DNA of 61,790 nt, the filler included, from Sanchytrium tribonematis (lineage: Eukaryota), in the NCBI GenBank assembly GCA_018985235.1. It is 9 parts of 9 records of this genome, joined end to end, with 100 filler letters (N's around TTAATTAATTAA, not from the genome) between each part and the next. Parts side by side here need not be neighbours in the genome. Positions count along the whole stretch, not along the records: positions 18,466 to 22,968 come from JADGIG010000714.1; 8 more parts are not named here. One strand, given 5' to 3'. Positions 1 through 33,010 of this stretch are shown one piece after another. Numbering within the stretch: position 1 is the stretch's first letter; each line of letters begins with the position of its first letter. The position numbers and the translations under genes are program-made. The notes beneath the pieces are model-generated. The model was not told the DNA's origin and did not search any database. It saw only the letters and a list, made by a program, of their open reading frames with translations.

Positions 1-831
1 AAAGATGATATTTAACAAGGGTCTTGAAGATTCACGTCTAGATTGCATCAGTAATTCATATTGAGGACGATCATTGGGACTAAAACAGTTTGAAAAGACG
101 TGATTTGGATTTCTAATGAAATAGCTTATTTGGAATAATCGACCCATAGAAGCACCTAGTGAATAAATATCTGATTTTAATGCATCAAATGACTCACGAA
201 TATAGGGTGATTTGTGATTTAGAAATGCAAACATGGATGGATAATTTGAAGATTCTTGTTTTTTCCACATTTCTGGTGCCATGAATTCAGGTGTGCCTAA
301 TACTTTTCGTATATATAATTGATTCATGTCACTGGATATGATGGATAATCCAAAATCAGCCAATACAAAGTAATATTTGCCATTTTTAATTTCATAAAAT
401 ATATTTGATATTTTGACATCCATGTGCGCAATAGGTGGCTGTAATGTATGTAAATAATTCAATGCACTTAATATATGCTTTAACAATCTTGTGAGAATAT
501 GTATATCATTCTGAATCATGTCTGCATCACCCAAATAAGATTTCATTGTAAATTTGGCAAATGTTGGATTTGTTAAATGACAATTAGATTCTTGGGATGT
601 CATTTGAATGATATGTAGATGTGGATGTTCATTTAATTGATTTAAATGACTCAATACTTTGATTTCATTGCAAATATCTTTTAAAATGGCTATTTCTTTC
701 ACATGATTGGATTTGATGGATTGGAATGATTTTATAGTTTGATTGGGTATTGATGACTTGTCGATGAATGCGATTGGATCATAAGCTGGAATGCAGAATA
801 ATGCATTTAATAAATTGAAAAACATCAACAT
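1..831 (-). CDS. Protein kinase-like protein with short hydrophobic N-terminus (3' end runs off window); tandem paralog of 934-1788
   Basis: Manual translation from ATG at 831: MLMFFNLLNALFCIPAY...ICNEIKVL...AHMDVKISN...LADFGLS...GTPEFMAPE...SDIYSLG; open to position 1, so absent from the ORF track. Confidence 0.85.
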   Translation of the reverse strand, partial: MLMFFNLLNALFCIPAYDPIAFIDKSSIPNQTIKSFQSIKSNHVKEIAILKDICNEIKVLSHLNQLNEHPHLHIIQMTSQESNCHLTNPTFAKFTMKSYLGDADMIQNDIHILTRLLKHILSALNYLHTLQPPIAHMDVKISNIFYEIKNGKYYFVLADFGLSIISSDMNQLYIRKVLGTPEFMAPEMWKKQESSNYPSMFAFLNHKSPYIRESFDALKSDIYSLGASMGRLFQISYFIRNPNHVFSNCFSPNDRPQYELLMQSRRESSRPLLNIIF

Positions 832-933
832 GGGGTATTTTTTGAAATCATAAAATGATGTGTCATGGCGTGACTTTTGTGCATATTGTGACATATTTGT
901 GTCATTTTGTGCCATTTTGTGACTCATATTTAT

Positions 934-1788
934 TTATTGATATTCATAAAACATTGGCAAATTCACCAAATTAGATGCAGTGGGTCGATATTGTGGATCA
1001 CATTGAGTCATGACATACACCAGTGCTTCATGGGTACTCATTAAATTGCGTGATAATAATAATTCTTGCATTTTTATGTATGTCTCATATTCAAATGTCT
1101 GACATTTTGAAGATTTTAAATTTCCAACAAATCCCTCCATTTTAAACAATTCACCAGCAACAACCCCTAATGCGTAGATATCAGTAAGAATAGCATCATA
1201 ATACGCTTTAATTGAGTTGTGATTTGATGTTTTTTGCCATATTTCTGGTGCCATGTATTTCGGAGTGCCTCTATAATCATTGACCATAATTGAATCATGA
1301 TTATCATGTCCAATACTAGATAATCCAAAATCAGCCAATGTAAAATAAGAGTGATATTTTGAATTTGTATTTTTTAAAATATTGGCTAATTTGACATCTC
1401 TATGCGCTACAGGTGGTGTTAAAGTATGTAAATGGCTTAATGCGACTAGCATATGATAGATTAATGCCATTTTAGATCGATTTGACATGAATCTAGTGGC
1501 ATCACTTTGAAATTGAATCATTGCCAATTTTGCAAATGTTGGATTTTCAGAGTGACAATTGGATTCATGAGATACCATTTGAATAATATGTGGATTCGGA
1601 TGACGCATTAAATAACTTAGTACTTTAATTTCATTACAAATACTATTTAAAATTGAAATTTCTTTCATTTTGAATTTAGAGGGTTGATTTGATAATTCAA
1701 ACGATTTAATGACATAATGATCTTGAAATGTAATAGTTGCTAGTGGATTGGATATCACAATGGCACATATGGAAATTAGATTAAACAT
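934..1788 (-). CDS. Ser/Thr protein kinase-like protein with short hydrophobic N-terminus
   Basis: HRDVKLAN, DFG, GTPKYMAPE, DIYALG and RPTA motifs. Start set at ATG 1788 (MFNLISICAIVIS) by analogy with the paralog; both are preceded by CCCC. Confidence 0.88.
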   Translation of the reverse strand: MFNLISICAIVISNPLATITFQDHYVIKSFELSNQPSKFKMKEISILNSICNEIKVLSYLMRHPNPHIIQMVSHESNCHSENPTFAKLAMIQFQSDATRFMSNRSKMALIYHMLVALSHLHTLTPPVAHRDVKLANILKNTNSKYHSYFTLADFGLSSIGHDNHDSIMVNDYRGTPKYMAPEIWQKTSNHNSIKAYYDAILTDIYALGVVAGELFKMEGFVGNLKSSKCQTFEYETYIKMQELLLSRNLMSTHEALVYVMTQCDPQYRPTASNLVNLPMFYEYQ

Positions 1789-2011
1789 GGGGAAATCGTC
1801 GAAAATGCTAGTGTAACATATTGTGACATTGTGACATTGTGTCACCCAAATACAATGTCTTAAAAATGACATTGACAATATTGATGGCTGATTAATGGCA
1901 CATTTTGAGTCTTCCAGATTGGCTATACAATTTAGAATATTCCATCGATTATCCAATAAAATGAATATAATTTAAAATCAAAATATTGCGTGTTTTACGC
2001 CATCAATTAAG

Positions 2012-3598
2012 ATGCTGCTCTTTCCAACTTTAAACGCACTTTCAGATTGTCAAAATTTACAACAATTCGCAATCAATTTGAATATGCATCTTGTCAATCC
2101 AGTCGTCATGAATCAAATTAATACACAATGTTGTATTGGGTTTGTCAGTGGTGTGAATTGTTATTCAGGGGTGATTGATTCGATTACATGGTCCAATTAT
2201 GGATTAAATGGAACTATGACATCATTTTTACCATCTAAATTGACTAGTTTGGATTTACAACGAAATCAATTGAGTGGATTATTGCCGACAACGGGATATC
2301 CAGCTAGTTTGACATCTCTAGTGCTGAATAACAATCAATTTAATGGGACACTGCCACAATTGCCTGATGCAATGACCTATTTGGTAATTGAAAGCAACAA
2401 ATTTACCAATTTCAGTACACTTCCATTAAATTTAAAGACATTTAGTGCCAGTTTCAATCTGATTAAACGCAAATTTCCAAATGATTTGCCATTAAATTTA
2501 CAATATTTGCGACTACAAAGCAATCAATTATATGGAAATATTAGTAGTTTACCAAATACTTTATTATTCATCGATTTATGTAAAAATTCAATTGGTGGTG
2601 TTTTACCACAATTACCTCCAAATCTCAATTATTTATGGATTTGTACCAATAGATTAGAGAATATAACTTACCCATTACCACAATCATTAGATACATTCAA
2701 TGTAGCAGGCAATTTCATTAAATCCATGGTTGAATTTCCACCCAATATTTTATTATTTTATGCAGATTACAATTTATTTCATGGCAAATTACCCCAATTT
2801 CCAAAATCATTGGAAGCATTGTCCATTTCTCGAAATCAATTATCAGGAGATATCTCAAATATTACTTGTTTCCATATCAATTATAATTCAAAATTAACCC
2901 ACATGATTTTAAATTCAAATCAATTGACTGGAAATATGCCCATTTTACCCCCTAAATTACAAGCATTACTATTAGGTGATAATCCAATGAGTGGTCCCAT
3001 CCAGTGTCTCCCAAATACACTCACGACTTTGCTACTCAATGGTGTCCCATTTACTGGTTCTATTATCATGAATCAGCCAGTGACACTTCAAATTAGTTCT
3101 ACCCATATTCACAATGTAAGTATTCAAAATACTTATAAATTAACCAGTTGTGATATTTCGAATACCCCGATGCTGAATAATCCAAATGCCGCATTATTGT
3201 TTCCAATTTGCACACATTCTATTTTATATCAATATACAGGTAATACAACACCCACTCCACAATGTGTATTGCCATTGACTTCAAGTACTTCTATTTCTCA
3301 AGATATGACACAAGATATTTCAATTATCACTAGAAATATCAAATTGGTGACTCATTTGACGGGTTATTCGTTTCATTCAGTAGATGGATCTAATTTTACC
3401 AGTTTAGTCAATACTACTATGTCATTGTCAACCATTTATCATTTTCAGAAACATGTATTTGAATTTCAATTAAATTTTAAAAATTTGATTCGATTCAACA
3501 TATCACTGATTGTTTTGTGCTTCATCATTTTCAAATCACCGTGGAAACGATTGAAAAGAAGGAAATTAGAGAGGGAAGATATTTATAGTAAATTTTGA
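2012..3598 (+). CDS. Leucine-rich repeat protein with Cys-rich N-cap, S/T-rich stalk and C-terminal TM helix
   Basis: Repeated LxxLxLxxNxLxGxLP/LPQLP units, DC..CC..C cap, hydrophobic ISLIVLCFIIF followed by basic KSPWKRLKRRK. Confidence 0.88.
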   Translation: MLLFPTLNALSDCQNLQQFAINLNMHLVNPVVMNQINTQCCIGFVSGVNCYSGVIDSITWSNYGLNGTMTSFLPSKLTSLDLQRNQLSGLLPTTGYPASLTSLVLNNNQFNGTLPQLPDAMTYLVIESNKFTNFSTLPLNLKTFSASFNLIKRKFPNDLPLNLQYLRLQSNQLYGNISSLPNTLLFIDLCKNSIGGVLPQLPPNLNYLWICTNRLENITYPLPQSLDTFNVAGNFIKSMVEFPPNILLFYADYNLFHGKLPQFPKSLEALSISRNQLSGDISNITCFHINYNSKLTHMILNSNQLTGNMPILPPKLQALLLGDNPMSGPIQCLPNTLTTLLLNGVPFTGSIIMNQPVTLQISSTHIHNVSIQNTYKLTSCDISNTPMLNNPNAALLFPICTHSILYQYTGNTTPTPQCVLPLTSSTSISQDMTQDISIITRNIKLVTHLTGYSFHSVDGSNFTSLVNTTMSLSTIYHFQKHVFEFQLNFKNLIRFNISLIVLCFIIFKSPWKRLKRRKLEREDIYSKF

Positions 3599-3602
3599 TT
3601 TA

Positions 3603-4528
3603 TTATGCTGTAAATTGACTAGTCATTGAATGTTTAGAATGAATTCTCCAAGGTATTTTAATCATCACCATTCCAGTAAACATGACATTTAAACACAATC
3701 TAAGAGTGATTGAAAGTGATCAATTCACTTTAAATGTCTGTGATGGCCATTCATGGTTATTTAAGAGTGAGAAATTGGTAGAAATGGGTTGTTTGGAGGA
3801 GATGATTTGAGAGTCAAAAAGAGTAGAATCCATTTGGGGATTATTTATGGTCAATGCACGACTAGGACCTATATTAGAGGGAATTACGAGTGATTTGAGT
3901 GAGATCTACTGGGGATTGATTCGTTTGACTGGCAAATGCGATAGATTCTAGAAATTCTAAGGATTCTGACAAATTAAAAGATGTACTTTGTGGAATATCT
4001 GTAGTAGGATGATTCATTTGAGATAAAGTGACTGATTTTAATGTTATCAAGGTGCTGGTGGCCAATTTGGAACTAGTTGGATGCGCTGTTTTAACAGTTA
4101 ATAGCCTGGTATAGTTCGCCATAAATGGGATGATGCCACATGTGCTACTATTACTCGCATATACATCATCAATTTTGCAATAACTTTTAAATGTTTTACC
4201 AAACACTCCAGGTGAAATTGGATTGTTACTCAAATCACAAATCAATAAAGTATCATCATATTTGATGATGACATCCAACACCAGATTATTTTGTATAAAT
4301 AATGCAGCAGGGCGTAAAAATGTCAAATTGCCACTCAAGAAATTATTATTGAAATAAATGGTAGTTCCTGTAAATGAGGCATCTGTGCAGCCACTTAATT
4401 GATTACAAGATACATCTAAGGTTGTATCTGTGGCTATAGATTTTGGAATACTGCCAGTTAATAAATTGTGAGACACATTTAAAAATACCAAATTTGACCA
4501 ATTCGGGATCTCACCAATAAGATAGTTA
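3603..4528 (-). CDS. C-terminal part of an LRR-TM paralog; intron 3869-3887; in-frame TGA at 3720-3722 before the TM helix (possible pseudogene or truncated allele)
   Basis: LRRs (LNVSHNLLTGSIP, LDVSCNQLSG). Removing a 19-nt GT-AG intron continues the frame to FKVN*SLSITLRLCLNVMFTGMVMIKIPWR, which matches the paralog tails. Confidence 0.75.
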
Positions 4529-4628
4529 NNNNNNNNNNNNNNNNNNNNNNNNNNNNNNNNNNNNNNNNNNNNTTAATTAATTAANNNNNNNNNNNNNNNN
4601 NNNNNNNNNNNNNNNNNNNNNNNNNNNN
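4529..4628. other. Artificial contig linker (Ns + TTAATTAATTAA). Same linker at 9146-9245, 13758-13857, 18366-18465, 22969-23068, 27571-27670, 32171-32270 and 36764-36863
   Basis: Eight identical 100-nt spacers with stops in all six frames; the enclosed contigs descend in length. Confidence 0.98.
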
Positions 4629-5272: not shown

Positions 5273-5853
5273 ATGATTTTTGGTAGCTATTTTAATGCAC
5301 TTCGTAAGTATTCAATTAGACAGTATCTGCATCAGTTCTTAGCTATAAATATTATGGTCGCCTCTGCGTTATACGTTTGGAAAGGTCTGGGTGTTTTGGC
5401 AAATACTCATTCACCTATCGTCGTTGTATTAACGGGTTCTATGGAACCAGCAATTCATCGAGGGGACATATTATTTATTACAAATCATACTAACACTCCT
5501 AGAATTGGAGATGTGGTGGTTTATACTGGGTACATGCAACAGGATGAGAAATTGGCCATTCCTATTATCCACAGAGCATTGCAAATATTTTACAAGCAAG
5601 AAAATGGTAAAAATGAAACATACATTGTTACCAAAGGAGACAACAACCCAGTAGATGATCGTGGTCTGTATCTTCCTGGACAGCATTTTATAAAACGATC
5701 TGAGATGTTGGGCTATTGCAAAGGAAATATCCCACGTAAATTTTCATTAATGTAGACCTGGGAATGATCACAATTTGGCTCAACGAAATACCTCACCTAA
5801 AAAATATTGTAATAGGGTTTTTGTGTGTGTGGACTCTTTTCAGCAAAGAATAA
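5273..5853 (+). CDS. SEC11: Signal peptidase complex catalytic subunit; join(5273..5735,5756..5853)
   Basis: SPIVVVLTGSMEP, PIIHR and TKGDNN motifs. Removing a 20-nt intron restores the conserved tail PHLGMITIWLNEIPHLK...SKE*. Confidence 0.96.
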
Positions 5854-14065: not shown

Positions 14066-16883
14066 TTAAAATGCTGATTGAGGATATTGCTTGCTTGTTC
14101 TTTTCTTCTTTTGTCGCCCCAATCGATTTGCAAACAATGTCATAATAAATAAGCCATCCACAGATAATTTGACAATCATCTGCCATGTCCAATGTAATTG
14201 AAATGGGCGCAATCCAAATTTTGTCAATGTGGTCCCTGCAACATTCGCCAATGTGAATGTACTGCTTGTTGCAAATGAGTTATCAGTAGTTTCATTGGAT
14301 GAAAGCAATGTGGTTCTTTTGAATGGAATACGTGTTATGACTAAATAAATGCAAATTACTGGATGGGGCATCATTTTGCAATTCTGAGCTAAAGGCTGAC
14401 CATTCTGCTGTGTTTGCTGGTACAGAGACAGTAAATTCTGCTGATTTACTACTTGTCACAACTATTTCAGTAGAATCCCCACTTGTTTCTCTTGTAAAAC
14501 TACTTGAAATAGTTGTGGAAATCAAACTACTCGATAAAACAATTTGCAATTGCAATGGTTTTGGGGTCAAATAATACTTTTTACACATGGTGTAATTACC
14601 AATAAATGTGCTATTCAGTAATGGATTATAAGAAACATCACAATTTGTTAAAAGTGTGGTATTTTTAATTTCAATGCTTGAAATATTTGTATTTCCTAAA
14701 ATCAATGTTTTAGGATGATTTACGAATAATTTATCGTTAAAAGTATTACCCTCTCGTGCATTATCACCCAATACAATTGTCTGTAATGAGTCAGGGAATG
14801 TTGGTAATGGACCAATGAAATAATTGCCTTGAATTTGCAATTCTGTCAAATTGGGTGGCAATGGTGGTAAAACACCTTTGAGTCCGCAATACATCAATTC
14901 AACACTAGTGAGAGTGCTTGGTAACGAAGATACATCTCCTTTCAAATCCAAATTGGTCATTTTTAATGTTTCTAATCCCTCTTCAAATTTTGGTAATGCT
15001 CCACCAATATTGATATTTCCGACTTCAAAATATTTAATATGACCCGGAAGAGTAGGTGGCAACTTGGCAGTCTGATTAAATTTGAATGAAATCTTCAAAG
15101 TTTGCAAAGAAGGAGGAATATCTTCCACATCAAACACATATCCATTTACAGTGTTTAAAATCAATTGATCAATTTGGTTTATGTTTAAAGCTGTGACATT
15201 TTGATTGACACAAGTGACTGTGCCATATGGATCATCACAGCAATTCTCTTCCACCAGAAATGGGGGAGATAAATTCATTTTATGAAACATTCTGAGGACA
15301 TATTTGCAAGAATCCAAATAAGAAGGTTCTGTATACCACTGATATTGTGTTTTACAATTTGTAAAATTACCCATTTGATTTTGAGGAATCATATTATATG
15401 AAACATCACAAAATAATGCCGTTGTACCCGGTTTTGCCCATATTTTATCAATAAAATTGCTTCTAAATCTAAAATAAATGGGTCGACTTGAATAAAAACC
15501 AGTCATATCGATGACACCTTTGATCTGATTATATGACAAATCAATAAATTCGATTTGACTTCCTTGTAACTCATTTTCAACAGCTGTAAATTGATTCTGA
15601 CTGACTCTCAAGGTTTTTATGGATAAAATATTGGGAATAGTTCCATTTAATCGATTTCTGTCAAGTTGCACTACTTTTAGATTGGGAGGCAATTTGCCAG
15701 AAATGGGTCCCGTTAATTGATTGTCATACAATTCTAATGAATTTAGATTCACTAAATGGGATAAATCTGGAAAAGGCCCAGTAATCTGGTTCATTCTCAA
15801 CTCTAAAATATTCAGGGTGTTGGGCAATAAAGTGCCATTTATAGTTCCATTCAAGTTTTGTTCATAAAATTGAATACTACTGATTCTATTTGATGAACAA
15901 CCATAGAATCCATCACAGCAATTTTGGCTATTTTCGATCTTATTGAAGTAATCCGGACTTGTTAAATGCATGTTTAATTGTTTTAAAAATTGAATAAAAT
16001 TGGGACAATCTGGAGATGGAGTGGTTTTCAATGAATAAGAACATCCATATGGTTGAAGGGCCAATAAATCATTATTATTTGACGTATCAAATTGGATATA
16101 TCCAATATTGCAGGTCTTCAACTTTTGAGGATTCAAGACAAATAAATTGTCAATTTTGTTGAAAGCGATGTTCAAACTGGTGATATTGGGAGAAGCAATC
16201 GTTAAATTGCCAGTAATTTGATTTCCACGCAATTGTAATTCTTTAATGTGCTTAAAATCAAAGGAGATAGGGCCATATAAATGAGAAAACTGCAAATCCA
16301 AAAATTCAATGGTATCTGGTAGATTTGGAAACCGACGTGGTACATAATTGACATAGGAATACAATCCGTTATTGTACAATGTCTTCAAATTCATGGCATT
16401 CTTTGGATAAATATCATAAATATGACCATACAAATCAATATATTCCAAAGAATCTGGTAAAATGGGTAAATTGGGTGGATTTGTCTCGTCATAATCACCC
16501 AATATAAAGTATGTCAAATTGGGAAATGCATTTAGATTGAATCTAATGTAGTTTGCTTCTGTTAAATCCATAACTTTGAGAGAATCGGGTAATTTCGTAA
16601 TCATCATGGATTTCGTGCTATATGCCAAGTCTAACACGCGTAAACTGGGTGGTAGAATGATATTGGGATGTGTTGCTTGCTTATAATCACTCGTAAATCC
16701 CCAATGGATCTCCGTCACCGTCTCATTTTGACAAACAACTCCAACTCCTAAACAACAATCTTGCTCATACTGAATGAAATAATCAGTATTTGTATACTTG
16801 ATATCCATATCTAATGCCAGTTGAATGACCGTGGGACAATCCACAGAGACAGCGCTAAGTAATGTCAAAAGTAGCGCGTACAT
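14066..16883 (-). CDS. Large secreted/TM LRR protein with three capped LRR modules; complement(join(14066..14340,14360..16883))
   Basis: Signal peptide and three DC/SC..CC..C caps each followed by LRRs. A 19-nt intron joins the S/T stalk to the TM plus basic tail (WQMIVKLSVDGLFIMTLFANRLGRQKKKR). Confidence 0.88.
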
Positions 16884-16941: not shown

Positions 16942-17706
16942 TTATTTCAAAAACAATAGCAGTAATAACAACAAACTAGGCTGTAATTGAAATCCATCTG
17001 CTTTTTGATTTATGGGTCTAATGGCTGCAAATGTTTGTGTTTTATACACTGACGTTGTTTTATCATCCATAACAGTCTGTGTCAATGCATAACTCACAAA
17101 ATACTCCACAGTTTTTGATGGATCTTTGTTTTGAATGGCTTGTGACGGTGTTTGAACAATCACATCTCCTTTCGGTTTCTCACTTAAAATTGGTGCATTT
17201 GGAGGAATAATAGGTGTTTGTTGTGTTTCTGATAAGACTGGTTGATTTGATGATGGTTGAATGAGATTTTGTTGAGCAGGAGGATTGGAAGTAGGTGGAG
17301 AAATGTTGCTTGGGTTATTAGTAGGGTTGTTTGTTGGATTATTGGGTGGATTATTGGATGTACTAGTTTGTGAGTTGCTAGTTGGATTTAATGGTGGCTG
17401 CGCGGGAGTGTTGCCTTGTGTTGTAGTTGTTGATGATGGCGGAGATGTAGTGCCTTTATTATCACTGTTACTCGTAGCTAATGGTAAAAAGAATGGCTGC
17501 TTAGGTGGATTATTTGTAAGATCTGGTTTTTGGCTATTTTGAGTCACAGGCGTATTTTGAGTGGCAATTTTAACGGGTGGATTTGTAGGCGGATTTGCTG
17601 GTGGATTGGATGGGGGATTGGATGGGGGATTTGCTGGTGGACTAGGTGGATTTGATGCTGTATTTTGATTATTGGTGTTTGCAACTTGAGAATTTGGAGT
17701 ACTCAT
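16942..17706 (-). CDS. Pro/Asn/Thr-rich surface protein with C-terminal hydrophobic (GPI-like) tail
   Basis: NPP repeats; ends SLLLLLLLFLK*. Confidence 0.75.
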   Translation of the reverse strand: MSTPNSQVANTNNQNTASNPPSPPANPPSNPPSNPPANPPTNPPVKIATQNTPVTQNSQKPDLTNNPPKQPFFLPLATSNSDNKGTTSPPSSTTTTQGNTPAQPPLNPTSNSQTSTSNNPPNNPTNNPTNNPSNISPPTSNPPAQQNLIQPSSNQPVLSETQQTPIIPPNAPILSEKPKGDVIVQTPSQAIQNKDPSKTVEYFVSYALTQTVMDDKTTSVYKTQTFAAIRPINQKADGFQLQPSLLLLLLLFLK

Positions 17707-17948
17707 CTCCCAGTTTCTTCCTTGTAAAAAATACCAGTTGCAATTGCATCATAAATGCAAACATTAAAAGCTGCTCTGCTCCTGTAAAATTGTCGCAGAA
17801 TTCACAGACCTACTAGTACGAAGTGTGATTGGATGTAAGTTCTATAAATGTTCTTTATTGGAACTGTTAAAGGTGTTTTGGGTGAATTTCCTGTGAAATG
17901 TCTGCGTGAGTAGTTAAATAGAGAGGAGTACTACAAATCTACTTTAGA

Positions 17949-18465: not shown

Positions 18466-21400
18466 ACCATCTTTTGGCAACACTATTATTTACAATGATA
18501 AAGATTGGCAATTGTGCCTCTACAATGAACCTGAATTAAAAGCAAGAGAGATTGAAAAGATTGAGAAATTCATTATTGATCGAGGTGCCATCCATTTTGT
18601 AAGAACTGGAAAATATCACTTTTCCAAGTTGGCTAAATTCTATTGTGAGTCTTATTCAGGAATTATGTGCTTATCTGAACTTCAAAGTGAAATTAAGCAG
18701 GCTGAATGGGTGTCCAAAATTAATGACAAAATCAAAAGCAACCAAAAATTAAATGCGGACAACATTGTGCACACTGATGAAGAAGATAGCAAGATTGGAA
18801 TGCATAAAGTAGTCACTCCAAAACCACGTCCAAAGCACCAAGTAGAATTGACTAAAGATGAATCGATGATGGACATTGACAAGTCCCTTTTGAAAGAAAA
18901 GAGCAAGGAAATGGATGATAGATCAAAAAAGACCCAATCAAGCAAGAAAATCCAGTCTTTTAAAATCGTAGTTGACAATGTCTCCAGAATGCACAAGTTC
19001 AAAAAGAATTTAAAAATCAAACATTGCATTGATGACAAATTAAACCCCTCAATCATCTACTACAATATGACTCGTGTACTGGATACTGATTATGACAAGT
19101 TAATCGAACCAGACTCAACATTGTTTATTGTGGCTGATGCAAAATTAGATCATCATTTTGAGTACAAATCTGGAAAATCTCAAGCCACTTCAATGATGGT
19201 TCCAGTGAAGACCAACATTTTTGACCTATTACCAATGTTTGTTGTCAACAACACCGAAAAGTACGATATTTTATTCAATGGAGTGAAATTGGATCCTGTT
19301 TTAGGTGGAATGAAAATCCTTACGTTAGAGGACAAATCTGGTGCTATTAAAGCAGTAAATTCAGTTTCTGCTTATGTGCCACGTTTTCGTTTGAATTTAT
19401 TTTCACTTTTTCATGCCATTACAAGCATCCTTCCAATATTATGCATTTTGATGATGCCATCCACTTACTCCTTTAATTTGAAATTCTGCGGCCAATCTTT
19501 TCACATTGACGGTGCTGAGACTGTACAGGACTTGGCAATTGATTTGATTGCACGTGGATTGCCATCGGGTCAATTTATTTTTGAAGGAGAACAAATGCCA
19601 TTGGGAACCAAATTAGAGGATAAACACAATAATAATATATTTTATAGAACAATAGATGTACCAACAGAATCCAATAACACCGAAGTACAAACTTTGAAGA
19701 TTGCCAGATGGAATATCAATGGACTCGCTTTTAACATTTCTGATGTACAGGATCTGATTATTAAAAATAATCTAGATCTCTGTTTCTTGAGTGAATGCAA
19801 AATACGCCATGATTACCCGTTACCCCCAAATGCCACCTACTTCAATTTAGATAAGAATAATCAAAATACTCGATATGGATGTGCAGTATTCGTAAATCCC
19901 CAAAAATATGCCGTTGGTGATTTAAATGTATATGGGTCACCTTCACATGTATCAGTCAAGATGCAATCAATAGAAATCTTGTTTATTTACCGTATCCTTG
20001 CTATTTCACCAATGGAATGGTTGGATCAAGTCAAGCCATTATTATCCCCCAAGACATTTGTTTTTGGGGATTTTAATATCAACAAACTCATTGCACTAAC
20101 AACAGAGCAACTATCATTCTTTGACTCTATGGCAGCTCTTGGATTCTATCAATTTGACATCCCAAATGAATATGGATACACTTTCTTGAAAAATGGAAGA
20201 ATTGGACTTGACGACTACGCATTTTATTTAAATAACACCTCTTATTGAATCAATGATGCTTATTATTTTGATAGATTTGATCTAAGTGACCACATGGGAA
20301 TGATTTTTGAGATAGAATTGGATAATTCAGAAGTGTTAATTTATCCTAAAAGAAGTCAATGGAATGTGGGTAAATTACAGGATGATCAAGTAAAATATCA
20401 ATATAAGCATGATTTAGATTTGCTAATAACACAAAACACTGAATTGCCCAAGAAATGCTCATATTTGATAATTTAAATCTTGACCCACAAATTCGTTTTG
20501 AAGCATGCAATAATATAGGAAATGACCTGGTCAGAATGCTTAATATTGCTGCCAATAATAATTTTGGTAAAACACGCAAAAGATATGGTATTAAATGCTC
20601 ATCTTTAACAGATGTGACCACAAACAGATTATTGGGTAATAACGACATAGCTAATAAAATAATAGAAAAAGCACGCAAGTTGGCAATGAAGAAATATAAA
20701 AAGGACATGGATAAGCTACCAACTGGGCATTATCAGAAAATCATTAAAATCGCAGCTCGTCGCAAGGGGATTAGTAGACAATATTTAGATAGACTGAAAA
20801 TTGTAGACCACCTGGAACAATGGCAACCCAAATGGGCACTTGAAGATGATGTACATGATGCATTTATTCCTAATTCACTACCCAATGTTGATTGGAATGA
20901 CTGCTCAATGGAAGATTTTTTGCAAATTCTCATGAAAACACCCAAATCCAAATCAACAGGTGATGATGGGGTTAAAAATGAGCTTTTACATGAGTCTAGT
21001 GACAGATTTAAGTCCCTTTTATGTAAATACATGAACTTAATAGGGAAACATGGGATGGTGCCTGATTTGATGAGATATTCTCTGATCGTACCCGTTCACA
21101 AGGGCCGCACAAGTAATTATGAAAGCATATTAGAATATAGGCCTATTGGACTGGTGTCTACACTTCGTAAGCTTTTCGAATTGATGTGGAAACCTCGTTT
21201 ACTAGATTTTTTACACACGAAAGAAAACCAACACGGTTTCAAAACAGCCGCAAGCACACTTGATGCTGCCTGGTACCTTCAAAACAGATTAATGGAAATG
21301 GGTTACAACCCTGATGAGCATCTACTAGTAAAGGGCGACGTAACTGCTGCTTTTGATTCAATTGAATATGAGCCAATGATGGAATTATTTGAGGGATTAA

Positions 21401-22968
21401 ATATGCCAGATAACTACAAATCACTCATAATTAATCTATGCACTCGCCAGAATATTCAACTACTCATTGGAGATATTAAATCGCAGTCTCGTGGATGTGG
21501 TCGTGGTCTGTTACAAGGGACAACAATTTCACCCAATATCTTCACTAAATTAGTAGACATGGTAATGGATGGGATGGACATTTTATCAGTATGGTTTGCA
21601 GATGACATTATATATGCTATTAAAAAGACAGAATATAATCAAGTGCTACTGGATATCCAATCTAGACTCTCAAGAATTGGGCTCACATTCAATGAATCAA
21701 AAACATACCCGCTGACCCATGACTTTGAGTACTGGCTTGGTTTTACTGTAAATTGCCACGGAATTAATGGGAACCAACAAGCAACTAGAAATCTACAAAA
21801 AGCTAAGAATAAGCTCAGAAATGCTCGCAATCTCGGAATTTTTAAAAATGCAGCTAAAAGCAGTCATTTATTACGCTATATTGGAAGTAGCTTGCTTCCT
21901 GTACTTGATTATGGCCTTGGATTGCATGATCCAATCCCTGAAATCGCCATGAAATTCGATGTCTTTATAAATTCCGCTGTAAGGACCCTATTGGGGATCC
22001 CATTCCCAACTCCCATAGCTGATATACGTGAATATTGTGGCTATTCATCCTACCTGGAGCGATGGCATTGTTTACAAGCAAAATTTAAAAACAGAGTCGC
22101 AGTTAAACAAAATCAGCTAAAAAGCATTGAATTTGCTCCTAAACCCAGATTTTCATTCACAATGGACAAGCAACTATCCAAACAAGCAGTTAAACATCCA
22201 TTTTTAAACCAAATATTCACACAAAAGTATCCAAACAGGACGATGGACTGCAGCAAATGCAATGGAACCCATAAATTCGTAAACAAACTATTTCAATGTC
22301 ATTCATTTCAATTTAATAATGAGTTGGATTCAATTTGCAATTTACATGAGGGCGAAACTGTGATTCAAATCCCCCCTGATTGGACAGCAACTATTCAAAG
22401 TTATCAAAATCAAATGATTTGTGATGAAATACACGTTTACAGTGATGCGAGTGTCCATAAATCACCTTTCAATAATGCAACTTCAGCATTTATTGTCATC
22501 TCAAAAGCGAATTATGCATTTAAAGTACACAAATTAAGTCACCTACAAATTGCTGATTCTACCAGAGCAGAAATATGCGGTCTAGCCAATTCAATTATCC
22601 ACTTAAACCAGCACTTTGACACCCAAAATCCCAGAATCACATTCTTCTGTGACAATAAAGCAGCAAATAGTAGTTTTATAGATGCTATGAATGGATCAAA
22701 ACCTCTTTATAATATTTACAGTATTGATATTATTAGTCAAGTATTAAATATGCTGCAACCATCTATGCAATTCAAATATGTGAAGGGACATGATCACTCA
22801 AATCCCCAAAATATCAACCACTTAGTTGATTATCTTACGCATTACCATTCACAAGCCGATATTAGCATATTGAAGTTAAATTATTAACCCAAAATACAAA
22901 GCAATGATGCGCAAAAGAAAAACAAAAGAGAGAAGAGACGTATTTCGACTTGAATTTTTGAAAGAAAG
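18466..22968 (+). mobile_element. Non-LTR retrotransposon: N-terminal extension with Ubl-like domain(s), APE endonuclease, RT, Cys/His knuckle-like motif, RNase H; interrupted by one TGA and one frameshift
   Basis: APE: WNINGL, FLSE, GDFN, YTF, LDD, SDH. RT: YRPIGL, QHGF, DVTAAFDSI, GLLQG, WFADD. Knuckle: CSKC..H..C. RNase H: YSDAS, RAE, CDN, KGH, NHLVD. Frame open from the contig start. Confidence 0.93.
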
Positions 22969-23141: not shown

Positions 23142-25295
23142 TTAATTTTTATTTACTTTTTTTTTCTTTTTGATAGGATTTGTGTAAGGATTAACACCTA
23201 TGATTTCTAATATGTTTGTCAAGGAACGGCTCATAGTGACGGAGGATTTTTGAAATACAGTTTTTTGGCTCCTTTTATCATTAACTAAAACAGAAAGTGT
23301 ATTTAAAAATTCTTTTCTTAATTGTTGTATATTCAAGAATATGTTTCGATCTATATTTGCTAAATGACCAAAATATTCCAACGAAAAGCAATTAACAAGT
23401 GTTAGTATACCACAACTATGACCATCTTGCTGTTTAACAGCATCCAGGATTATAATTTCAGATTCGTAATCCGGAAATAATTCAAAAAAACTCATAATCG
23501 CCTCTTCGTCAGAACCTCCCAAAGAGTCTGCAATCGAAGCTCTAATGGTGTTATTTTCAAGTGTAAATTTTGCGCAAAACCAATGATTAGTAGTAAATAT
23601 CATAGCTGTTATTGGAAGTTCCAAAAAATTAAGCATTTGTTGACTACTTAGCTCACTGCTTAAGCTTTCTAGAGCCTGTACTATTTGTCTCAAGTCTATC
23701 GGGTACAATGTAAATCTGCTTAATTTTTGTCTTGATTGTGCGAGTTGCTGATAAAAGAATTCTAGCATTAAGCCCATGCAAATTTCATTTAAATATAAGG
23801 CAGAATCATTATACGTGGAACTACTACTATTTAATCTAAGGCAATTAAAGTCCTCCTCTTTTAAACCTTGTGTTAATATATTGATACAATATTCTCTCTT
23901 TAAATGGTCTTTTGATTTGCTGACATTTGGTTTTTCTTTCCTTATAAATGTGACACTCGATGTACTTGAGTGGTTGCCAATGGAGGATGATTTTCCATAG
24001 TCATCTTCAGATGTCTTGAGGTTGGATTCCGTATGAATTTTCAAATGATTCTGGACATTTCTTTGCTTGAGATACAGGTCTTTCAAATAAACTACAAATA
24101 AATCACTTTGATCTTTTGAATATATATCTAGTGCTTTAAAACACTCAACAAGTGGTCTCTGCACACCAAAAATATCATTTAAAATTTTGTAAGCTTTTTT
24201 AGATTCCAAATCACTCAGTAATCTAACATCTTCTACATTCCTACTTAACAAATTTTTGGAACATACTGATAAATAGCTGCTAATTAGTCTGGGGTCATTG
24301 GCCTCAGTATTGAAACAAATTTCAAACTTTTGCTTGTATTCTAAAAATGTTTTAGAATATTGTCTTGCAATCACTTTGAAATGATATCTCAGAGTAAGAT
24401 CGTCAATACGAGATATAAAAGAAGTTAAAATGGGGTAGAATGTCTCATTCGGCAATAGGATACTTGAAATCACGACAAACTGATTATTGATATTACTTAA
24501 TAAATAGGTTTGGAAACCCATACATTGGTTCTTAGATACCAGATTCTCCATGCTTTCCGACTGATGCGTTATATTGAAGTATTGTGACTTTCCATTTGAA
24601 ACAACATCAAAATGGCATTTTTTTAGATGGCTGGTATCTCGACTATACGTCATCAATTCATCGACAGTTGAAGTATAAGTTATACTAAGACAATCCTTTA
24701 CAACACAAAGATCACTCGGAGGTCCAGAACTGAGTCCCAAAGTATCGACAAAACAAATTTCATGACCATGTGGATTTGGAATAAACAGAATGCCATATAA
24801 TCGATTTCTAAATACTTTAAGAAAGCACAACAAAGCAAAATTGCACTTTACATATGTCATATAATGACCGCAATCTGGCAAAGGGCATTCAATATTATTG
24901 AAAGATTCTAAGTTTTCAATTGAGACATTGGATTCTGCCAATTTGATACTTTGACAATTGCTGCATTCATAGTGTGACGCACACAAAGATGTACTATGAT
25001 GATGGTAATTATTTTCAGAGCTCAAATATGCGTTAAGGTCAGAATTATCCAAATAAACATACGATTGCGGATAATTCATTTTGGAGAATTCCAGATATCT
25101 TTCATTTAAAACCTGATTATCAGGACTCTCGTAATCATGTAGCAAGTAGAACTTTAGCACTTTATTCGGTCTTTTAAATTGGAATGCCATTGAAGCGTTC
25201 TTTTGATAATTCTCCCAGCTCAGAATAGTAGAAGCAACGCTAATCTTTGTATTATATCTAATGTATTCCGGTGACAGCGGGTTTGATATTGACAT
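23142..25295 (-). CDS. Probable transposon-derived protein: GCM/WRKY-like Zn domain, degenerate MULE-like segment and C-terminal Ulp1 (C48) cysteine protease
   Basis: Protease motifs NHWF, ADSLG and QQDGHSCG are clear. The N-terminal C..C..C..CP..C..C..HGH pattern and the VISSILLPNET segment are weaker. Confidence 0.65.
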   Translation of the reverse strand: MSISNPLSPEYIRYNTKISVASTILSWENYQKNASMAFQFKRPNKVLKFYLLHDYESPDNQVLNERYLEFSKMNYPQSYVYLDNSDLNAYLSSENNYHHHSTSLCASHYECSNCQSIKLAESNVSIENLESFNNIECPLPDCGHYMTYVKCNFALLCFLKVFRNRLYGILFIPNPHGHEICFVDTLGLSSGPPSDLCVVKDCLSITYTSTVDELMTYSRDTSHLKKCHFDVVSNGKSQYFNITHQSESMENLVSKNQCMGFQTYLLSNINNQFVVISSILLPNETFYPILTSFISRIDDLTLRYHFKVIARQYSKTFLEYKQKFEICFNTEANDPRLISSYLSVCSKNLLSRNVEDVRLLSDLESKKAYKILNDIFGVQRPLVECFKALDIYSKDQSDLFVVYLKDLYLKQRNVQNHLKIHTESNLKTSEDDYGKSSSIGNHSSTSSVTFIRKEKPNVSKSKDHLKREYCINILTQGLKEEDFNCLRLNSSSSTYNDSALYLNEICMGLMLEFFYQQLAQSRQKLSRFTLYPIDLRQIVQALESLSSELSSQQMLNFLELPITAMIFTTNHWFCAKFTLENNTIRASIADSLGGSDEEAIMSFFELFPDYESEIIILDAVKQQDGHSCGILTLVNCFSLEYFGHLANIDRNIFLNIQQLRKEFLNTLSVLVNDKRSQKTVFQKSSVTMSRSLTNILEIIGVNPYTNPIKKKKKVNKN

Positions 25296-25346
25296 GTTTT
25301 ACTGAAGAAACAGGGGTAAAATCAAATTTAAAAAAGTCTTTATTAA

Positions 25347-32270: not shown

Positions 32271-33010
32271 CTGTATGCGATAAAATCTTTTTCAATTACT
32301 TCAGAGTCACTTTTTTCATTATATAAGCGATGATTCCAATGGTCCCAAACTACAAATTCTACACCAAATTTTTCCTTCAATTTGGATTTCAAAACTCCAA
32401 CCGTATCTGTTGCTGGAATTTTAATTTCATAGAGTTTGTCATGAAATACTAAGATTTCCATACTGGTAGGTATTGGAACAGAAACAAATTGAAAAGGGTC
32501 GTATGTAATTGAAATATGATTGCAATTTTGGCATTGGACTGTTCCTTTGAATTGCCCTCCAAATAAATCAAGAATTGCTGAATCGAATCTTTGTTTAGAC
32601 TTTTTCCATACAAGAACTGGGTCTGGATTCTGATCATTTTCATCAATTTCAATAAGCTCGGGATTCTTTTCAACAAAATTGGATTCTTCATGAAGTTCAT
32701 CAAGCAAAAAAACTAAAAGTTCGTGTGTGTCTTGTTGTCCATAACCACGAAATAACGAATTTCTATTTGCGACTAGAGATTTAATGTGACTTGGAGTAAA
32801 TGAAGAACTTTGACTCAGACTGTGACTTGCAAAAGCTGCCAGTGCATTTAAAAGATCTACCCTTTTAATTTTCTTCTGTTTGCCTTCAATTTCACCGAGG
32901 TAAAACTTTTCTATCAGATAACCTTTGATGAATAAATCACTGCTAATTATGCACTGCAAGGCCGAGTTCATAAAACAAGTATTACCAAGATTATTCAATC
33001 CAGCTGGCAT
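32271..33010 (-). CDS. Ubiquitin C-terminal hydrolase, USP4/15/Ubp12-like (truncated)
   Basis: Cys box GLNNLGNTCFMNSALQC; QQDTHELL; CQNC..TYDPF. Confidence 0.93.

Follow-up and report, generated by a model that had tools for sequence, protein, structure and literature searches.

Among long interspersed nuclear elements (LINEs) that carry a single open reading frame (ORF), a 2A peptide has been described N-terminal of the APE endonuclease, sometimes with a PHD domain or a tract of 90-115 amino acids (aa) between the two (PMC3708506). The 2A peptides of such elements (L1Tc/Ingi and some CR1, L2, Crack and RTE) have been proposed to set the upstream functions apart and to ration the polymerase (PMC3708506, PMC3894237), and some 2A-like peptides also act as signal sequences (PMC4981915). 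In plant Ta11 and oomycete L1 elements a Cys motif lies upstream of RNase H, and it is found downstream in other elements (PMC5348765). The element described below comes from Sanchytrium tribonematis, a member of the Sanchytriomycota, and occupies one contig (JADGIG010000714.1) of a 61,790-nucleotide stretch of assembly GCA_018985235.1 that was analysed as a whole (the window). It is a real and conserved variant of LINE architecture, apparently undescribed, in which a predicted ubiquitin-like domain (Ubl) stands directly before APE, and for which a mechanism of processing is predicted.

A broken APE-type element and its diverged relatives

The contig (18466-22968, 4.5 kb, plus strand) carries a broken copy of a retrotransposon lacking long terminal repeats (non-LTR), with the order APE, reverse transcriptase (RT), Cys/His motif and RNase H; the element is truncated by the contig boundary at both ends. 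The first frame (P0001; 18467-20245, 593 aa) is open at the contig start and contains APE (Pfam Exo_endo_phos, E 1.6e-5, or 9.5e-7 for the domain alone). Frame translation revealed that a stop (20246-20248) interrupts APE and that the frame changes near 20441; a second frame change probably lies near 22881. The downstream frame (P0002; 20443-22884) holds the RT (Pfam RVT_1, E 1.1e-19), whose best PDB matches were R2 (E 8e-13) and L1 ORF2p (E 1e-9), as well as the Cys/His motif C-x2-C-x3-H-x8-C and, downstream of it, RNase H (Pfam RNase_H at E 3e-4, below the curated cut-off; PDB 3h08 at E 0.002-0.004). With an APE N-terminal of a non-LTR-type RT, and with multiple dispersed, diverged and truncated copies, the element belongs to the APE-type non-LTR retrotransposons. 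The original prediction had placed its quoted segments in one frame with APE, with at least 400 codons ahead of it and no separate ORF1. Translation agreed with the first two statements, 409 codons being counted from 18467 to about 19694; the third goes beyond what the window shows, since the contig begins inside the ORF.

The element was also followed in X1, a DNA sequencing run that is possibly the source sample, where 35 contigs were found at an identity of at least 80%, several divergent 3' versions among them. Since both the stop and the frame change are missing from versions among the X1 contigs, the window copy is a decayed member of its family. The sequencing-run search listed the element in this one DNA run and in no RNA run.

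A complete relative from the same species, P0003, is an unbroken single ORF of 1621 aa with the same domain order. It was the best of three matches among 2235 long-protein candidates, with 43% identity over 99% of the RT-RNase H query. The order APE-RT-Cys motif-RNase H is shared with plant Ta11 and oomycete L1; the motif was recognised by eye in the translations of both the window and P0003. Unlike those elements, whose RNase H is of the archaeal type with Arg, the active site appears by eye to be of the D-E-D-H-D type, with His in the window and in P0003. A further difference is that Ta11 and oomycete L1 have a separate ORF1 and, within the partial text of PMC5348765, no reported Ubl.

Ahead of APE the first frame encodes an N-terminal domain, a charged linker and three units (U1, U2 and U3), with a hydrophobic helix between U2 and U3 (Table 1). 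P0003 aligns with P0001 from U2 through APE (E 7e-68), and the similarity of U3 between the two is strong (z 24, 1000 shuffles); in P0003, U3 starts at residue 444 and 519 aa precede APE. A profile of the extension, searched against 1.84 billion representatives, retrieved seven proteins at E <=0.001 (P0003, itself part of the query, included): six EukProt S. tribonematis proteins on six different contigs and one metagenome fragment from ENA (P0032), the only relative found outside S. tribonematis in this search. The EukProt names are those of assembly nodes and are no evidence of expression. Besides P0003, parts of the order are kept in five fragments that are less than 50% identical, four of them from S. 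tribonematis and one from a metagenome. P0031 extends from the N-terminal domain through U1 and U2 to the helix; P0033 and P0035 hold the N-terminal domain, and P0030 the helix and U3. An in-frame passage from U3 into APE is seen in the window, P0003, P0034 and P0032. The domain order is conserved across diverged subfamilies, the five U3 homologues being 21-38% identical. This bore out the expectation that other copies would keep the extension. The next relatives by RT are 18-27% identical (24 matches, two from the long-protein search and 22 from another), and none of the 24 fits the profiles of U1, U2 or U3. A word-indexed protein search with the extension alone, at near lengths, scored none of 4327 candidates, and narrow search patterns found no related loci in JGI metagenomes or IMG/VR.

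Judged from these alignments, the Ubl-APE arrangement is old and common to several subfamilies, which removes the reading that a LINE had inserted in frame, as a single event, into a host gene for a Ubl or membrane protein; together with an assembly chimera, such an event is highly improbable and is largely refuted by P0003, P0032 and P0034. In its favour, a single X1 contig at an identity of at least 80% covers U1-U3, whereas several divergent contigs cover the 3' part. The other 3' contigs of X1 branch off inside APE, which fits 5' truncation without proving it. Against a single insertion, P0003 shows this order too, as do fragments from five further contigs, each less than 50% identical or in a separate cluster, and one X1 contig (18573-19886) crosses the U3-APE junction with no difference from the window.

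The predicted ubiquitin-like domain and the units upstream of it

U3 was modelled with an alignment of eight rows (A3), and residues 341-400 reached values of 71-89 in the predicted local distance difference test (pLDDT), with the topology strand-strand-helix-strand-strand-strand. When the model was compared with 48,161 chains by VIA-align, the top row for U3 was a ubiquitin variant (Z 8.4, root-mean-square deviation 2.7, 70 of 79 residues aligned), and of the 50 rows listed, 45 placed ubiquitin, SUMO or another beta-grasp protein on the U3 segment. Foldseek rows for U3 were all ubiquitin-like, at a probability of 1.00 and a best E of 0.0036. The identities of the structural matches were about 8-26%. 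Two points count against the assignment: the VIA Z of 8.4 barely exceeds what that tool describes as the common range, and E 0.001 was reached in none of the Foldseek rows. We consider the ubiquitin-like beta-grasp fold of U3 to be well supported as a structural prediction.

Sequence searches gave no comparable signal. U3 had no match to a ubiquitin family in Pfam and none to ubiquitin among PDB sequences, whether single or profile queries were used, and the profiles A1, A3, A4 and A7 found neither ubiquitin nor an ORF1 protein in the PDB. The by-eye alignment to ubiquitin from which the Ubl was first proposed is thus without statistical support in Pfam or the PDB, and it is the predicted fold that upholds the domain. 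Single-sequence AlphaFold modelling of U1-U3 gave a mean pLDDT of 34 and no Foldseek match. Atlas feature scores to Ubl clusters were 0.79-0.81, values often reached by shuffled proteins, and did not recur with P0003. A Pfam SAM_EPH match on U3 was rejected (E 0.05-0.13, far below the cut-off), and matches of the four profiles to PP1 regulatory subunit 10 (E 0.01) and to MENT were judged to be chance. U3 lacks the C-terminal di-glycine of a modifier that is conjugated or cleaved by deubiquitinases. The unusual LINE architecture that had been proposed is sustained by the beta-grasp prediction for the APE-adjacent Ubl and by the relatives that keep the extension.

A weaker second copy of the Ubl had also been suggested upstream. 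That segment, U2, is conserved with P0003 (z 3.7, 5/1000 shuffles), but its homology to U3 was undetected (hhalign probability 0.13). U1 was similar to P0003 at z 2.4 (27/1000 shuffles) and out of register. The alignment at U1 and U2 consists of three sequences, and there the model stayed below a pLDDT of 50; VIA barely tested these two units. Repeat homology among the three units found no support: the shuffles were not significant, and hhalign did no better than with 16 control blocks.

The N-terminal domain is conserved in P0031, P0033 and P0035, and showed no significant pairwise similarity to the N-terminus of P0003 (z 0.3, 500 shuffles). The structure model covered only the helical C-terminal part of this domain, and VIA matches of its helices (spidroin, AdnB; Z about 7) were rejected as lying within the range of common helical arrangements. 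P0035 is a near-identical copy with 174 extra residues upstream; a comparison by eye showed agreement with P0001 at 44 of its first 45 residues, after which P0035 follows the loose end of X1 at 18602. As a separate observation, a shared contig of 131 bases in X1 (18472-18602) forks at 18602 into the path of the window and that of P0035; the near-identical copy keeps the 5' part and then departs from the element sequence at this position.

The hydrophobic helix and its predicted processing

The hydrophobic stretch noticed between the units is the most hydrophobic 19-mer of P0001 (residues 311-329), with a Kyte-Doolittle (KD) value of 2.19; residues 418-436 hold the same rank in P0003 (KD 1.80). 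All four sequences with the whole stretch have a 12-residue core with a KD of 2.2-2.6, which ends 3-8 residues before U3. Hydrophobic character is kept in these four although the sequence is not, the helix being the least conserved part in comparison with P0003 (z -0.6, 500 shuffles). Its distance from U2 lies anywhere between about 35 and about 56 residues, the helices of the window and P0031 contain a proline, and the helix was modelled at a pLDDT of about 45. An intron in this T-rich region was considered and rejected by inference, as the frame is open in the window, P0003, P0030 and P0031 despite changes in length.

Signal peptidase follows a (-3,-1) rule, with small residues at these two positions. 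Immediately before the first strand of U3, the six available sequences have S, A, S, G, A and S at -1 and T, T, V, A, L and A at -3, while -2 varies. Small residues at both positions were found in all rows at two of the 118 columns covered by at least five rows, the background being about 8% per position. A hydrophobic core followed by small -3/-1 residues, as in signal-peptidase substrates, was seen at four of four helices and six of six sites. Membrane tethering or proteolytic processing had been raised in the original prediction, and both possibilities gain indirect support from this in-register site and from the hydrophobicity that the helix retains. We read the locus as a broken copy of an APE-type LINE with a predicted Ubl directly before APE, whose helix may be an internal signal sequence cut by the host signal peptidase; we hold this reading tentatively, as a plausible one that falls slightly short of probable. 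Separately, a gene resembling the catalytic subunit of signal peptidase lies on another contig of the window (5273-5752, plus strand), with weak matches to Pfam S24/S26 (E 4e-4 and 0.004).

A signal anchor that follows several hundred cytosolic residues inserts with its C-terminal side toward the lumen of the endoplasmic reticulum (ER). In the scheme that we propose, the ribosome would dock at the ER as the helix emerges, the helix would insert in this same orientation, and signal peptidase would cut before U3 to yield a product beginning exactly at the Ubl, while the N-terminal ORF1-like part with U1 and U2 would stay on the cytosolic side of the membrane. Much of the Ubl-APE-RT-RNase H product would be routed into the ER and removed; a small fraction would slip back or be retrotranslocated to the cytosol and nucleus, where it could perform target-primed reverse transcription. 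The junction would do the job of the 2A peptide at the same position in other single-ORF LINEs, separating the halves and keeping the polymerase scarce. As a guess, the Ubl might be a handle for the proteasome/p97 machinery, or a fast-folding brake on translocation.

A number of observations weigh against this proposal. The hydrophobicity scan found no second membrane segment that could return the polymerase to the cytosol, so that a hypothetical step of slipping back or retrotranslocation is required. The (-3,-1) rule is a loose one that was brought to bear once the sequences had been seen, and it here admits Leu at -3; the six sequences are related, the small residues could reflect packing before strand 1, and the second all-row column is an A-x-G inside the Ubl. 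Nor are hydrophobic stretches rare toward the beginning of LINE ORFs: a 19-mer with KD above 1.6 occurs within the first 400 residues of eight of the 24 distant RT matches, three of these stretches preceding a 2A-type motif. The N-terminal domain, ORF1-like by position, had no Pfam or PDB match to ORF1 (RRM, coiled-coil, CCHC, PHD, esterase). By a crude scale, the energy of inserting the helix comes out as marginal (+0.6 and +2.6). Flanking charges do not decide its orientation (+2, +1, +1 and +1 on the N side; +1, +1, -1 and +3 on the C side), and C-terminal sequons in P0003 occur at chance frequency (8 against 9.0 +/- 2.7).

The marginal hydrophobicity for a full transmembrane span, as well as the proline, would suit an uncleaved anchor, re-entrant or amphipathic, by which the whole polyprotein and its RNA would be tied to the ER, nuclear envelope or lipid droplets while its two ends stayed in the cytosol. 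The polymerase then need not cross a membrane, and membrane targeting has been proposed for the esterases of LINE ORF1 (PMC4120745). We nevertheless judge such an anchor unlikely, as it leaves the in-register small-residue site at the start of the Ubl unexplained in six of six sequences and keeps the ORF1-like and polymerase parts at 1:1. Charges without a clear topology, sequons without a lumenal signature and the low pLDDT of the helix may be taken instead to indicate a soluble segment within a folded U1-U2-helix-U3 module, with the Ubl serving protein or RNA binding, or degradation, on a cytosolic polyprotein. A helix that packs in this way should retain some of its sequence, yet this is where conservation is lowest, and its spacing from U2 is variable; a soluble module therefore appears decidedly unlikely.

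Predicted cleavage by signal peptidase can be compared with several known systems. As in the LINEs with 2A, there is one ORF with a short processing signal (here predicted) before APE and, as in some of those elements, a small domain between the two. Unlike in them, far more sequence lies upstream, the intervening domain is predicted to be a Ubl, and the signal has the look of a peptidase site and not of a ribosomal skip. The motif D(V/I)ExNPGP was absent upstream of APE in all nine proteins, which sets the element apart from those with 2A, and a related NPGP motif was found in three of the 24 distant RT matches. In a side observation on unnamed LINE proteins from ENA (P0019, P0022 and P0024), the hydrophobic stretch ends in an NPGP motif with His-Pro replacing the consensus Glu-x. 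[quoted passage not shown] Ty1 Gag passes through SRP and the ER lumen, with a return proposed (PMC3945221), and HBV precore can re-enter the cytosol after signal cleavage (PMC9300162). Unlike the present LINE polymerase half, for which processing is a prediction, these are structural proteins of an LTR element or of viruses and have experimental support. A more far-reaching formulation, possible though rather doubtful, is that this LINE has fused its ORF1-like and polymerase genes and lets the host's signal peptidase and the ER translocon stand in for a stop codon or 2A, splitting the polyprotein and rationing a Ubl-headed polymerase; in its boldest form this would extend to export toward the algal host.

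The original prediction had also raised a chimera of a retroelement and a Crinkler-type effector. Like Crinkler/CR effectors, the element combines a predicted beta-grasp domain N-terminal of a nuclease with a parasitic fungus-like organism and links to transposons (PMC5289972, PMC12957317); unlike them, its Ubl is internal and is followed by APE-RT-RNase H and not by REase, HNH, kinase or peptidase domains. The Crinkler motifs LxLFLAK/HVLV were found in none of nine proteins (some CR headers also lack them), there was no Crinkler-type Pfam match, and U3, far from an N-terminal header in P0003, would become N-terminal only after the predicted cut; the chimera is not supported by these comparisons. 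A related scenario is that, once cut at the signal, the Ubl-headed nuclease-RT would be secreted into the algal host and act as a Crinkler-like effector or serve as a vehicle for horizontal transfer. The predicted product, Ubl-nuclease, resembles the header-toxin layout of Crinklers, and algae are parasitised by sanchytrids (PMC10459994). Against it, besides the lack of Crinkler motifs and domains, the cargo has all the parts of a retrotransposition set, the copies are for the most part broken fragments, as with an ordinary transposon, and a polymerase in the lumen would be separated from its RNA. We consider secretion into the host very unlikely.

Features of the window and meaning of the architecture

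The features of the contig are collected in Table 1.

Table 1. Features mapped on the retrotransposon contig, in window positions
Feature	Position	Strand	Basis
Whole contig, broken retrotransposon copy	18466..22968	+	Bounded by N spacers; domains by Pfam
C-terminal part of N-terminal helical domain, ORF1-like by position only	18467..18760	+	Helices at residues 22-92, pLDDT ~60-73
Charged low-complexity linker	18761..18949	+	Sequence; pLDDT <40
Unit U1, ~63 aa, conserved, possibly beta-grasp	18950..19138	+	Aligned in window, P0031 and P0003; pLDDT <50
Unit U2, ~74 aa, conserved	19145..19366	+	z 3.7 vs P0003; partial strands, pLDDT ~40
Hydrophobic helix, predicted internal signal sequence or signal anchor	19397..19453	+	KD (19-mer) 2.19; model helix 311-328, low pLDDT
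Predicted signal-peptidase (-3,-1) site, cut between residues 335/336 (before 19472)	19463..19474	+	Small residues in 6/6
Unit U3, predicted ubiquitin-like beta-grasp, without C-terminal di-glycine	19472..19657	+	Model and structure searches
APE endonuclease with internal stop	19694..20330	+	Pfam Exo_endo_phos; frame translation
Reverse transcriptase region, Pfam core 21133-21747	20443..22248	+	RVT_1; 38-59% identity per 100 residues to P0003
Cys/His motif C-x2-C-x3-H-x8-C	22249..22299	+	By eye in translations
C-terminal RNase H	22423..22884	+	Pfam RNase_H, PDB 3h08

The window consists of contigs of about 4.5 kb joined by N44-12 bp-N44 spacers (N runs at 4529, 9146, 13758, 18366, 22969, 27571, 32171 and 36764), and because it is an artificial concatenation, gene neighbourhoods across the spacers are not real. 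Its G+C content of 29-41% per kb is in line with the value of 34.64% published for S. tribonematis (PMC8371127). On the other contigs, three related leucine-rich-repeat proteins, each with a signal-like N-terminus and a Cys-rich cap (1976-3598, plus strand; 3874-4528 and 14292-16883, minus strand), look like an expanded family of surface proteins, Pfam LRR/FNIP being matched in two of them. Two tandem, related and divergent protein kinase genes lie at 1-1971 (minus strand; Pkinase E 2.6e-24 for the second), and a fragment of a ubiquitin-specific protease with a weak internal match to the ubiquitin family (E 0.044) lies at 32271-33010 (minus strand). An ORF of 718 aa (23142-25298, minus strand), possibly derived from a transposon, had no Pfam match at E 0.01 and has Cys/His clusters upstream; its C-terminus shows by eye a His...Asp...Gln-x-Cys arrangement, which we take to be like that of Ulp1-type cysteine proteases. 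Two further ORFs are unrelated to the element: one rich in Pro, Asn and Thr with a hydrophobic tail (16942-17748, minus strand), and a divergent one with a signal-like N-terminus and no Pfam match, cut by the contig end (17922-18365, plus strand).

In literature listings we met no LINE that has either a Ubl or a signal-peptidase site ahead of APE, although Repbase and Zhang et al. 2016 (on CR effectors) might already describe one. A paper that surveys the ORF1 domains of CR1, L2 and Jockey elements mentions, in the partial text, neither 'ubiquitin' nor 'transmembrane' (PMC4120745). On sanchytrid transposons, the literature search found general papers only, and the main text of the genome paper contains neither 'transpos' nor 'repeat' (PMC8371127).

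LINEs with a single ORF face a problem of copy number, in that many RNA-packaging proteins and few polymerases are needed; this problem is only partly answered, 2A being the known solution. The helix, cleavage-type site and Ubl conserved at the junction point to a second solution, based on the ER. Even if the helix is not cleaved, a Ubl kept before APE across subfamilies as little as 21-38% identical is an accessory domain that we did not find reported for LINEs, and it belongs to a very divergent retrotransposon family that persists in a highly reduced fungal genome.

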